This document shows positions 50,494-53,059 of a stretch of 64,000 bases of DNA, in pieces. Numbering within the stretch: the first letter of the stretch is position 1; the number at the start of each line of letters is the position of its first letter. The stretch is taken from contig CAWBZI010000006.1 in the NCBI GenBank assembly GCA_963793265.1, positions 864,001 to 928,000 of the forward strand, written 5' to 3'. The DNA comes from an uncultured cyanobacterium. GTDB lineage: Bacteria > Cyanobacteriota > Cyanobacteriia > Phormidesmidales > Phormidesmidaceae. Under the pieces are notes generated by a model that saw nothing but the letters and a program-made list of their open reading frames with translations, did not search any database and was not told where the DNA came from. Made by a program: the position numbers and the translations under genes.

Positions 50494-50943
50494 TTATGCC
50501 ATGCGATCGCGCTTAATGTCATACACCGCCTTATCAATACACCAAACAGCATCTTTACCAGGATTTCTCTCTGCAATCCTTTCCACTAATCGCAGGGAGA
50601 TTTCTTGATTATGCGTGAGTTCATTAAGTCGGTGGTACGGCAGCGATTGTGATGTAGTGCGGCAACAGCTCTGCTTCAACCAAGGTGATTTTGGTTTTAT
50701 GTTGTCAGTCCGTAACCGATCGTAGCGAATAGGAGAGCTTTTGGATGATGTTTGCTTTTGCTTCAGCCAGGGTGACTTCGGCTTTATATTGTCAGTCCGT
50801 AATCGGTCATATCGAATAGGTGTTTTCAACGGCGTTCTCAACGGCGTTTTCCCATTCCAGCTAAACCACGGAATGCCAATCTTTATAGCTCTAAAGTAGC
50901 TCCACAACACCGCTAAACCGACTAAGGTAAGCAAAACAGACAT
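50494..50943 (-). CDS. membrane-anchored hypothetical protein with a duplicated 21-aa motif
   Basis: N-terminal TM, two copies of PIRYDRLRTDNIKPKSPWLKQ, C-terminal NPGK..WCIDKAVYDIKRDR domain. Confidence 0.7.
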   Translation of the reverse strand: MSVLLTLVGLAVLWSYFRAIKIGIPWFSWNGKTPLRTPLKTPIRYDRLRTDNIKPKSPWLKQKQTSSKSSPIRYDRLRTDNIKPKSPWLKQSCCRTTSQSLPYHRLNELTHNQEISLRLVERIAERNPGKDAVWCIDKAVYDIKRDRMA

Positions 50944-51126
50944 TCAGCTACACTCGCAAACAAATTCTCCCTTAGTGTCCCCGTCAAAAAGCCTCATATA
51001 ATGCAAAGCTCATTTGATACGACGAATTCAAGAAGTGAATTTCAATTAACTGACAAGAGAAGCTTCAATTTCTGACCTAGAACCTGTGAGATTTCAATGT
51101 TGCAATGTCTACCGAAATCACCACTG

Positions 51127-51372
51127 TTATAGTTCGTCGTAAGCAGCCATTTGAGGATGATTCCAATCTTCGGCAATAGCTTGTAGTCGAGATCGCAACT
51201 CAGCAGCCTGTTCTGCCCCTATTCCTCGGCTCACCAAATCCACCAAATTTTCAGCGCCCGATAGGCCCGCGTTCGTTTTTTCTTGTAAGAACTCAGCGAA
51301 CTTCAACACGGCTTGCTGTTTATCAGGTGCCAGGACGCGGATAGTTTCAAAGATTTGTTATTCAATTAGCAT
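51127..51372 (-). pseudogene. DUF2281-like antitoxin gene with a premature stop
   Basis: MLIE*QIFETIRVLAPDKQQAVLKFAEFL...EDWNHPQMAAYDEL; in-frame TAA at 51360-51358. Confidence 0.65.
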
Positions 51373-51468
51373 ATCTAACTCTGTCAAATAACTATGATAT
51401 GAAGGATGGCAGAAGATAGCCGACTCATTCCGCTGACTATGCAAAACGCCTTCTTACAACATTTGCGC

Positions 51469-51497
51469 TTGCGTCTCCGTAAAAATACGCCTATCAT
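51469..51497 (+). promoter_or_regulatory. sigma70-type promoter of the leader and small ORF
   Basis: TTGCGT-17-TATCAT. Confidence 0.6.
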
Positions 51498-51503
51498 CAT
51501 CTC

Positions 51504-51761
51504 TAAGGTTGTGATGCGGGCTTTCGTACCGCGCTGCACCTTCTCAGAACTCAAAAAGACTAAGCACCGTTGGTAAGTGCTGACACACCTACCAACGGCT
51601 AACGCACAGGATTCCTAAGCAATCCCGGACGCCTAAGGGTCACGATAACCTTTAGTCACCCCGATTTGCACGTCATCTTCGGATGGCATTTCTGTGGTCG
51701 GCTAAGAATTCGCGAGTTCTGGGTTTCCTTACCCTCACCTAAAAACGGAACCCCAGAAATC
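51504..51761 (+). promoter_or_regulatory. highly structured 5' leader RNA
   Basis: Six consecutive hairpins, including a cUUCGg tetraloop and a stem ending 3 nt before ATG 51762. Confidence 0.55.
51553..51636 (-). ncRNA. candidate cis-antisense sRNA (~80 nt)
   Basis: Minus-strand GTGCAA-18-TATCGT promoter, two hairpins that pair better on this strand, ends in a U-tract. Confidence 0.45.
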
Positions 51762-52001
51762 ATGTTCACCCTTTCTCCCCAGGTCGCCTTCGCGTCCACC
51801 GTTCCTCACGACAACAAACCTGTTGCCCAAGCCGAGCCTATTTGTCACACCCTAAAAGGTAGCCTCAGCGCCATCAAAGCCACCATCCGGCTACTGTACA
51901 AACTCAACTACGCCGAACCCGGCGACTGGAGTCCACCGCAACCCACCGACCGACACAACGAATTCATATCTGTTCTAAAGCGACGAGTAACCGTAGGCTA
52001 G
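51762..52001 (+). CDS. small hypothetical protein (79 aa)
   Basis: MFTLSPQ...HTLKGSLSAIKATIRLLYKLNYAEPGDWSPPQPT...FISVLKRR, followed by a terminator. Confidence 0.7.
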   Translation: MFTLSPQVAFASTVPHDNKPVAQAEPICHTLKGSLSAIKATIRLLYKLNYAEPGDWSPPQPTDRHNEFISVLKRRVTVG

Positions 52002-52020
52002 CTACTGGTATTGAACTGCC

Positions 52021-52053
52021 GAGGCGGGGGCTAAGAAGTCCTCGCTCGCTTTT
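52021..52053 (+). terminator. intrinsic terminator
   Basis: GCGGGGGCT-AAGA-AGTCCTCGC, then TCGCTTTT. Confidence 0.55.
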
Positions 52054-52213
52054 CTATGCGTATCTTGGTGAAGCGCTGCTTAAGTACAACAGAAGGTTGA
52101 TCTGAGGAAGTTTGCAGCGCAGCATGTTTGTTTGCCTGAGCATCTCTTAAAACAAAACCCTAAACCATAACGGCTCAGGGACTGCTTCAACTATTTATTC
52201 AACAATTGGCCGA

Positions 52214-52286
52214 TGCCAGGAGGCGGACTTGAACCGCCGACACGAGGATTTTCAATCCACTGCTCTACCAGCTGAGCTATCCCGGC
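52214..52286 (-). tRNA. trnF: tRNA-Phe (GAA)
   Basis: GCCGGGATAGCTCAGCTGGTAGAGCAGTGGATTGAAAATCCTCGTGTCGGCGGTTCAAGTCCGCCTCCTGGCA folds as a cloverleaf; CCA not encoded. Confidence 0.95.
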
Positions 52287-52435
52287 TTGCGCGTTTTGCG
52301 CTTAACCAAAGTAGCAAACTAGGGGGACGCAAGCAAGCAAGTTTTTCAAGGGTCAGCCAATTGAGTGAAATCCTCAGTTTTGATTGACACCGACCCTCAA
52401 GTAATGCTGCAAACCACCTAGCTTGAATAGCAGCG

Positions 52436-52870
52436 CTATTGGATAGGACGCAGTCGAGCGACTTTGAGTGAGAAGGGGCCTGCGCCGCCACCTGCATAGG
52501 AGCGAATGCGAATGGTGTATTTGCCGGTTTCGCTGATGCGAGCAAAGAGCAGAGAATTGGTAGAGCCGTCGGGGCCGTCGTCGTTTTCGCTGACGGTAAT
52601 GCCGTTTCCATCCATGAGGGTGACGAGGGTATCAAATTCGTCAGAGATGGCGTCGATGGTGATTTGATCGCCTGATTCTAAATCGACTACGTAGTCGCGA
52701 GCAAAGCCGCCAAAGCCTGTAGGAATATCAGAGGTAGAGAGCGTATCTTTGATCTCTTCGGTGCTGATGTCCTCTGGGTTGTACATTTGCGCTGACGCTT
52801 TAGTCGCACTAAGGCCCATAGATAGCACGAGAGCAGGAACGAGAAGCGACAGGAATCTGGTGGGTTTCAT
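52436..52870 (-). CDS. secreted PPC (pre-peptidase C-terminal) domain protein
   Basis: Signal peptide ending ASA, FDTLVTL...ENDDG...GKYTIRIRSY. Confidence 0.85.
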   Translation of the reverse strand: MKPTRFLSLLVPALVLSMGLSATKASAQMYNPEDISTEEIKDTLSTSDIPTGFGGFARDYVVDLESGDQITIDAISDEFDTLVTLMDGNGITVSENDDGPDGSTNSLLFARISETGKYTIRIRSYAGGGAGPFSLKVARLRPIQ

Positions 52871-53059
52871 ACTGAAGTTAAATTTAGATGTGCTGGTCAA
52901 AAAAAGGGTGAACGCTACCAATATGCCCGAGAAATATACTCACAACTATTGATAGCGACAGTATAAACCGTCCATTTTACGGACGCTTAATGAGAGCAAG
53001 CTTAGCGGCATTTGGCGTTCTTAAATGTTCAATGCCGCCGTACTAAAGACTAAGGACAG

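Follow-up and report, generated by a model that had tools for sequence, protein, structure and literature searches.

In translational 'ON' riboswitches, such as the add adenine riboswitch, the 3' strand of the closing helix is common to the Shine-Dalgarno sequestor. Type I toxins are small, hydrophobic, membrane-active proteins, usually of under 60 amino acids (aa), type III toxin-antitoxin systems place tandem antitoxin RNA repeats upstream of a gene for a ToxN/AbiQ-type endoribonuclease, and HEARO, or omega-RNA, is a large multicopy structured RNA upstream of IscB. The locus described here shares some features with each of these. It lies at positions 51469-52053 of a 64,000-nucleotide (nt) stretch, here called the window, from an uncultured cyanobacterium of the family Phormidesmidaceae (assembly GCA_963793265.1, contig CAWBZI010000006.1, positions 864,001 to 928,000 of the forward strand), and comprises a promoter, a long hairpin-rich leader and an open reading frame (ORF) for a 79-aa protein. 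An original prediction, made from the sequence of the window, had described a self-contained locus, a candidate for an undescribed system, that would be either type I toxin-antitoxin-like or riboregulated. Of these, 'riboregulated' remains the best reading, and the balance of the comparisons below tips towards the leader being an undescribed cis-acting translational switch that precedes a small protein.

The leader family and its fold

The locus is not a lone one, as the paralogue count that the original prediction had proposed shows. A DNA search of the same genome returned diverged copies, a nucleotide profile picked out 11 units of full length and some 14 weaker ones, and jackhmmer over all six-frame ORFs gave 24 protein paralogues. 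A full-length leader is present at 23 of these 24 according to R1, a covariance model described below (11 A-type and 12 B-type leader matches). The proteins likewise fall into an A-type (...YAEPNDWS.P.PTG..EVMVVLTRRV; 13 copies, including the window copy and one truncated copy) and a B-type (...RHILLGSP.A..QTIHLLH.LHYAET.LW.P....ITPAQGEA.SLLRK; 11 copies). Locus L018 (C4:698547-698765), which has neither a start codon nor a leader, looks truncated from its sequence. Locus L061 (C2:476235-476663) has no ATG, possibly a UUG start, and a divergent C-terminal end, with the leader kept (57 bits).

Similarity among the paralogues runs from the -35 and -10 boxes (cTTGAC ... TATCnTCA) to around the stop codon, with unrelated flanks, and the unit therefore consists of a promoter of the sigma-70 type, a leader and an ORF, in a compact span of about 530 nt. 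In the window copy, the features of which all lie on the plus strand, the -35 box read from the sequence is TTGCGT (51469-51474; family consensus TTGAC), the point at which paralogue similarity begins, and a 17-nt spacer separates it from the -10 box TATCAT (51492-51497), kept as TATCnTCA in paralogues and in other species. These are the hexamers originally proposed; a generic promoter scan flagged 0 sites at this pair. Transcription would start near 51504, and the leader, about 258 nt long, lies between the -10 region and the ATG at 51762. The ORF itself was confirmed at 51762-52001, 79 codons and a stop codon at 51999-52001.

RNAalifold was applied to 11 leaders from the same genome and then to 23 leaders from this and other species, and returned the same architecture both times. 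A 5' hairpin (P1) is followed by a long-range helix (P2/P2a) that closes a four-branch junction (P3 to P6), and a final hairpin, P7, begins at the base after P2; across the family the leader measures about 245-270 nt. Covariation, which the original prediction had suggested looking for in homologous leaders, was counted on a MAFFT alignment of the 23 leaders (A3) that had not been fitted to the structure, with partners slid by 1-3 columns and 500 column shuffles as controls. Over 64 pairs, 90.5% of cells are paired versus 29-49% with the 3' partners slid, compensatory changes on both sides occur at 26 pairs versus 4-12 when slid, and 0 of the 500 shuffles reach any of five pairing measures. 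These changes gather in P1, P3, P4, P5, P6 and P7. Family covariation is stronger support for the structure than the folding energy of the window copy, in which a 277-nt stretch folds better than its shuffles at z = -2.34 (3 of 200 shuffles equal it). When all columns were compared with one another in search of further covarying pairs, the noise was too high for any pseudoknot to be supported. The covariance model R1, built from A3, has 245 positions and 64 pairs.

The hairpins that had been listed from the sequence all exist, and correspond to P1, P3, P4, P5, part of P6, and P7; the long-range helix at 51545-51565/51701-51721 was overlooked. P1 (51505-51542), seen in the minimum free energy fold, extends in the window copy beyond the family core UGUGAU/AUCACA, and 5 of the 7 pairs in this helix (helix 1) have changed on both sides. 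The 5' strands of the long-range helix, found by RNAalifold and as inverted repeat I2, are P2 (CAGAACUC, 51545-51552) and P2a (CUAAGC, 51560-51565); its 3' strands are P2a (GCUAAG, 51701-51706) and P2 (GAGUUCUG, 51714-51721). Within the junction, P3 (CCGUUGGUAAGUG/CACCUACCAACGG, 51566-51599; inverted repeat I4) has compensatory changes at 7 of 13 pairs (helix 4). P4 (51605-51628) has them at 4 of 7 (helix 5); it consists of GGAUU/AAUCC with outer C-G pairs, its inner core (GGATT/AATCC in the DNA) lies at 51609-51625 in the window copy, and GGAUU/AAUCC, GGACU/AGUCC and ACUG/CAGU are all found as variants.

P5 (CUAAGGG/CCUUUAG, 51631-51656), with its stem CTAAGGG/CCTTTAG spanning 51633-51655 in the window copy and a variant CUAGAG/CUCUAG, is paired in 93% of cells with 2 compensatory pairs (helix 6). 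P6 (51657-51701; family form CCACCCCG/CGGGGUGG) is imperfect in the window copy, and is paired in 86% of cells with 3 compensatory pairs (helix 7). The inner P6 hairpin GUCAUC-UUCG-GAUGGC, noted originally for its cUUCGg tetraloop, does exist at 51672-51687, but of the 23 aligned leaders just two, the window copy and L009, carry this insertion, which is therefore not a family feature. P7 (51721-51754) is paired in 100% of cells with 3 compensatory pairs (helix 9), and in the window copy lies within a stem TTCTGGGTTTCC/GGAACCCCAGAA at 51717-51758.

Both parts of the unit appear to be under selection. Among the three closest paralogues the ratio of nonsynonymous to synonymous change (dN/dS) is 0.04-0.11 at a synonymous difference (pS) of 0.26-0.33, and the median pS among all paralogues is 0.72; on these measures, the ORF is a real gene. 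The leaders of the closest paralogues differ at 6.4-8.3% of aligned sites versus 26-33% at silent sites of the ORF, and this greater constraint on the leader implies purifying selection beyond the needs of base pairing. Among loci chosen for holding the ORF, 48 full-length leader matches were obtained in 50 sources. All 48 leaders examined stand before the same small-protein family, with no shared metabolic or transport theme.

No established RNA family accounts for the leader. The proposed Rfam scan (Rfam 15), run over 50500-53000, gave only a tRNA at E <= 1, and over five paralogue loci only tRNA and a chance snoRNA match (E 0.79). No description of the leader RNA or of the protein was found in the literature; the supplements of PMC12873609, which might list a related motif, lay outside that search. 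That paper presents a screen of 202 cyanobacterial genomes restricted to the surroundings of 931 KEGG orthologue groups, and a screen of that scope is unlikely to cover this leader family. A large fold (245 positions, 64 pairs) that is backed by covariation, absent from Rfam and abundant in one cyanobacterial family makes the leader one of the more abundant unannotated structured RNAs of its cyanobacterial group.

Alternative pairing at the ribosome-loading site

In A-type leaders P2 is paired in 100% of cases and its letters never vary, so that it gives no covariation within this type. In B-type leaders the P2 letters are gone, and CGAAAAAUUUAGC pairs with GCUAAnUUUUUCG instead, with the rest of the fold kept. 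The A-type strands CAGAACUC..CUUAGC and GCUAAG..GAGUUCUG have thus been swapped as a whole helix, and by this comparison of the two subfamilies the long-range helix is real.

P7, which directly follows, holds the putative ribosome-loading site. Its 3' arm reads GGAACCC in the window copy (GGAACCC(C) at 51747-51754), GGAGACC in most A-type leaders and GGAGAAACCC in the B-type; a Shine-Dalgarno-like GGAA is thus present in the window copy, and GGAG in most copies. The arm lies 0-11 nt ahead of the AUG; the B-type GGAGAAACCC directly adjoins the start codon. The burial of the ribosome-loading region, as originally proposed, is borne out by the conservation and covariation of this hairpin. P7 is not followed by a U-tract, which makes control of translation likelier than attenuation.

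The 3' strand of P2 (GAGUUCUG, 51714-51721) has an alternative partner in CAGAAAUC (51754-51761), a near-repeat of the 5' strand of P2. This pairing belongs to inverted repeat I3 (15-nt arms, 87% complementary), and 51714-51721 is used by both I2 and I3. If formed, it lengthens P7 as far as the last base ahead of the AUG. On average, P7 is extended outward by 3.6 base pairs (bp) in 35 A-type leaders and 3.5 bp in 13 B-type leaders, versus 0.8-0.9 bp when slid; some of the B-type zeros in this count are register errors of the automatic alignment, and L026, aligned by hand, has 5 bp. In the B-type, UUUUUCG/UUUUCAU pairs with AUGAAAA, so that the start codon itself is part of the extension. When P2 is enforced, the predicted fold differs by a mean of 0.1 kcal/mol over 35 leaders from the fold in which the 3' strand of P2 has to pair downstream (-79.3 versus -79.8 kcal/mol in the window copy), all of these being rough values. 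The leader thus has two helices that exclude each other; both are retained in the two subfamilies, in different letters, and they are predicted to be about equally stable. This is how a switch is built. That switching takes place, and that it acts on translation, we infer from this anatomy.

The mechanism would operate as follows. In one state, the 3' strand of P2 would pair with its distant 5' strand, leaving the junction closed and P7 short; in the other, the same strand would pair with the near-repeat just before or across the start codon, so that P7 is longer and the whole ribosome-loading site is buried. A factor that stabilises the closed junction would open translation, or alternatively lock it. 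If the leader is such a switch, the encoded protein binding its own leader (autoregulation) is put forward tentatively as the trigger. A small-molecule or ion ligand is a more doubtful candidate, and so, to the same degree, is a trigger consisting of temperature, a helicase, processing or some other factor.

Several observations weigh against a switch. Even in the closed-junction fold, GGAA/GGAG remains within the 7-bp P7, and because it is paired in both folds the gain in ribosome access would be only modest. The near-equality of the predicted energies is subject to the roughness mentioned above. P2 and its alternative pairing are both invariant within the A-type, and the evidence for the two pairings is therefore the comparison of A-type with B-type, or approximately one evolutionary event. 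The Nostocales homologues of the protein lack the large leader, so the protein can function without it. Binding of RNA by the protein would have to be achieved by a domain that has no convincing fold match. Finally, a riboswitch devoted to a single small-protein family, in at least 20 copies per genome, would to our knowledge be unusual.

The protein family, its distribution and its surroundings

AlphaFold2, run with the family alignment, predicts a disordered N-terminus (about residues 1-22) in the window protein, followed by a beta strand (23-33), an alpha helix (35-47) and a second strand (68-78), with the motif NYAEPGDWS and a mean pLDDT (predicted local distance difference test) of 81 over the 79 aa. 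Family proteins of 79-114 aa have grand average of hydropathy (GRAVY) values of -0.67 to +0.08, and the window copy has an isoelectric point (pI) of 9.4; by composition the protein is soluble. It is also probably dimeric: the predicted homodimer has an ipSAE of 0.84 versus 0.00 for the best control, with runs agreeing in 100% of contacts and a partner pLDDT of at least 90, and strand 25-34 is placed against its twin, together with the helix. Among proteins of solved structure, 20 of 30 one-chain pairs and 1 of 23 single chains attain that mark.

None of the libraries searched names the family. Pfam and NCBIfam have no family for the window protein, none of 29 family members matches PADLOC at E <= 0.01, no PHROGs match was found for family members, and Pfam over the 29 members yields only sub-threshold Tail_P2_I matches (5 of 29, best E 0.0053). 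A sequence profile search of the PDB gave no match (best E 0.12), and the ESM Atlas matches are unnamed cyanobacterial clusters only. Structure searches were no more specific. Foldseek, which had been proposed for the predicted structure, found nothing in the PDB at E <= 0.001 (best, a phenylalanine hydroxylase ACT domain at E 0.22), and a wide structure search with VIA reached a best Z of 4.0. These are weak matches, no more than generic beta-alpha-beta likenesses between predicted and known structures.

The protein profile matches 735 clusters at 50% identity among 1.84 billion representatives, 268 of them at E <= 1e-10, and the best 150 of the 735 are 53-185 aa long. Every homologue annotation seen is 'hypothetical protein' (Leptolyngbya, Phormidesmis, Scytonema, Brasilonema, Mastigocladopsis and others). 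One Leptolyngbya record, P0014 (163 aa), is matched by the profile in two stretches, which points to tandem duplication or fusion of the domain. Among 31 genomes near that of the window, 20 have matches, including 16 of the 18 within the genus with 1 to 44 matches each, and 147 of the 150 matches listed from related genomes have no internal stop codon. Across the phylum, with up to 12 candidates scored per genome, the profile was found in 51 of 401 genomes and 25 of 156 genera. Copies are also carried by 13 cyanobacterial plasmids, among them one of 19 kb from Scytonema and plasmid D (27 kb) of Trichormus variabilis, on which parG is close to the copy.

The large leader has a narrower range. 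R1 matches 95 of 121 sampled genomes of the order to which the window belongs, all of one family and in 12 of its 15 genera, and with up to 17 candidates scored per genome many have at least 17 leader matches. Together these genomes give more than 860 leader matches. One locus of another family (L046) is also matched. When R1 was run with filters off against homologue loci of the Nostocales and other families, the best score was 9.8 bits and no match was credible, which indicates that the large leader is lineage-restricted. Homologues from the Nostocales and other families (L063-L075) have a different and short leader, consisting of a promoter, a HIP1-like GGCGATCGCC hairpin and, immediately ahead of the AUG, a CCCC-N5-6-GGGAG hairpin; small plasmids (AP018199.1 and NC_021575.1) carry some of these homologues, one of them near parG. 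Since these distant homologues have this other leader, the protein predates the large one. To judge from the sequences, a masked ribosome site seems to recur in the family. In fragmented assemblies, many family matches are found no more than a few hundred bases from the end of a contig (for example G017:C292:494-751, C444:162-428, C165:158-415 and C341:39-323), as if the units or the sequence adjoining them break assemblies.

The locus is self-contained, as had been supposed, in that no neighbour is conserved among 23 copies: Pfam, applied to 100 neighbouring ORFs, identified no conserved partner gene. The accessory genes found near these copies include Uma2 (6 loci), PIN (4) and HigB with HTH (2), as well as Fic, DUF4258, a type I restriction subunit and a DNA methylase. 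A Uma2 (PF05685) gene is no more than 500 nt away from six of the 24 copies (C1:991092-991589, C6:44607-45110, C6:361378-361875, C1:1528262-1528717, C1:1288077-1288547 and C1:1034264-1034719), where 0.40 would be expected at random; given the 49 Uma2 matches in the genome, a count of six is attained in 0 of 5000 simulations. In other species, Uma2 occurs within about 1.5 kb at 1 of 30 loci, by a home-made profile that recovers 34 of the 49 known Uma2 matches. Uma2 was therefore rejected as a partner module, on the grounds of this rarity and of inconsistent orientation, and its proximity is taken to mean that both are located in accessory regions. Around the window copy, the flanking sequences are neither contiguous nor syntenic in relatives.

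Downstream of the ORF, a consensus terminator scan marks GGCGGGGGCU..AGUCCUCGCU followed by CGCUUUUCUA (52023-52056, plus strand). The terminator originally proposed is partly upheld by this result: a hairpin is flagged at 52023-52046, but the CGCTTTTCTA next to it is a poor U-tract and the sequence is not conserved among paralogues. Some hairpin with a U-rich tail was found in a separate scan within 120 nt past the stop codon in 13 of 22 paralogues, and a conserved terminator was dropped as a family feature because of this count and the unlike hairpin sequences. The sequence GGCTAAGAATTC (51700-51711, the 3' strand of P2a) reappears as GGCTAAGAAGTC in the terminator-like hairpin (52029-52040); there are two copies only, and this may be chance. 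Tandem Repeats Finder returned 0 rows for 51300-52200, and a repeat search found no terminal inverted or direct repeats at the ends of the unit.

Of the two flanking features that had been named, the tRNA-Phe is present at 52214-52286 on the minus strand, but the supposed toxin-antitoxin relic, a minus-strand 60-aa ORF at 51127-51309, has no Pfam match at E <= 1. Just past the tRNA lies a 161-aa ORF (52436-52921, minus strand) that has a PPC (pre-peptidase C-terminal) domain (E 2.2e-6) and a signal-like N-terminus. Another ORF with a PPC domain is found about 530 nt downstream of the family ORF in the paralogue locus L022 (L022:4063-4788).

Possible roles and comparison with known systems

An RNA and a protein that are so strictly linked may be partners rather than regulator and regulated gene. 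The leader could serve as a scaffold, decoy or antidote that binds the dimeric protein, much as the RNAs of type III toxin-antitoxin systems bind their toxins, and the unit would then be a selfish element or one for addiction or defence. As a simple mask over a ribosome site the leader would be very large and ornate, matches range from 0 to 44 among species of one genus, copies are found among PIN, HigB/HTH, Fic, Uma2 and restriction-modification genes, and homologues reside on the 13 plasmids mentioned above, including those of 19 and 27 kb. However, tandem RNA repeats and a terminator between RNA and ORF are absent, no PADLOC or PHROG model is matched, the fold is not nuclease-like, and the Nostocales homologues lack a large leader RNA; with 147 of 150 listed matches open and dN/dS low, nothing suggests decay driven by toxicity. 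Such a partnership is rather improbable in this general form. The related and more specific view, that the protein recognises its own four-way-junction RNA and that the pair forms an autonomous conflict element for addiction, defence or anti-defence, is unlikely but deserves somewhat more weight. Were it correct, the copy number of 0 to at least 44, the plasmid copies and the toxin-antitoxin-rich surroundings would reflect turnover under selection, and the unit would be a new class of RNA-based module and not a regulated housekeeping gene.

Other explanations are further from the evidence. If the leader were a ribozyme or a trans-acting non-coding RNA, with nothing but the transcript in common with the small ORF downstream, this would suit its large multi-helix fold, its many invariant unpaired bases, its lack of an Rfam relative and its high copy number, but such a role is improbable given that in every copy the last helix contains the ribosome site and adjoins the start codon, that no terminator follows P7, and that orphan leaders number 0 among 16 full-length genome matches (150 of 763 candidates scored). 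A mobile element or remnant, MITE-like (miniature inverted-repeat transposable element) or retro-copied, with copies that spread and structure as a by-product, would explain the many scattered copies, the matches near contig ends in fragmented assemblies and the loss of synteny around the window copy in relatives. This is very improbable: the unit ends carry no terminal inverted or direct repeats, the paralogues are old (median pS 0.72) and yet have their pairs kept by compensatory changes and their frames open, and copying through RNA is argued against by the inclusion of the promoter in the conserved unit. Least probable is the type I toxin-antitoxin-like locus, in which a toxic small protein would be silenced by a locked mRNA and an antisense RNA. 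The sequestered ribosome site, the long-range 5'-3' pairing and the toxin-antitoxin-rich surroundings of the copies speak for this analogy, one of the two in the original prediction, but it does not hold for the protein, a folded soluble beta-alpha-beta domain of 79-114 aa with GRAVY values between -0.67 and +0.08; 24 diverged copies under strong purifying selection would be atypical as well. No conserved antisense terminator or promoter was found, and the terminator-like sites on the minus strand rest on an A-run that other A-type copies lack.

A cis-acting translational switch is thus the reading that we retain, and if it is correct the leader would be a new sensor; if RNA and protein are instead partners, they may represent a new kind of RNA-protein element. 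A comparison with the closest described systems illustrates both the likenesses and the differences. As in the hok, tisB and aapA1 mRNAs, there is a long structured 5' region with long-range 5'-3' pairing and a masked ribosome site, but the product here is a soluble folded protein of 79-114 aa and no conserved antisense terminator was found. With ToxIN and CptIN the unit shares an RNA element immediately before a protein gene in one transcript, and a family found on plasmids and in accessory regions. Unlike them, it has no tandem repeats, no intervening terminator and no ToxN/AbiQ-like protein, and its RNA masks the ribosome site; assignment to type III was rejected on the repeats, the terminator and the toxin family. 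HEARO/omega-RNA is similar in being an ornate RNA of 200-300 nt that occurs many times in a cyanobacterial genome, each time 5' of one type of ORF. The leader differs from it in having no Rfam match at E <= 1 (the HEARO family was in the library searched), an ORF of 80-110 aa with a beta-alpha-beta domain that is not a nuclease, and no transposon ends.

The autoregulatory leaders of ribosomal proteins also consist of a structured RNA directly before a gene, and here too the protein is small, basic (pI 9.4), predicted to dimerise and strictly linked to its leader. In contrast to those proteins, it has no likeness to any RNA-binding family, and we know of no autoregulatory leader with a copy number approaching that of this unit. 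Among the features by which riboswitches are recognised, the leader has a conserved covarying fold and a platform of mutually exclusive pairings, and the genes behind it share no metabolic or transport theme. It is unlike the add-type riboswitch in its four branches and extra 5' hairpin, which at 245 positions make it much larger than typical aptamers, in serving one small-protein family with at least 20 copies per genome, in keeping GGAA/GGAG paired in both folds, and in having no Rfam match. It is like the add-type riboswitch in that its junction is closed by a long-range helix, the 3' strand of which can instead join the hairpin that holds the ribosome site, in two folds of similar predicted stability.

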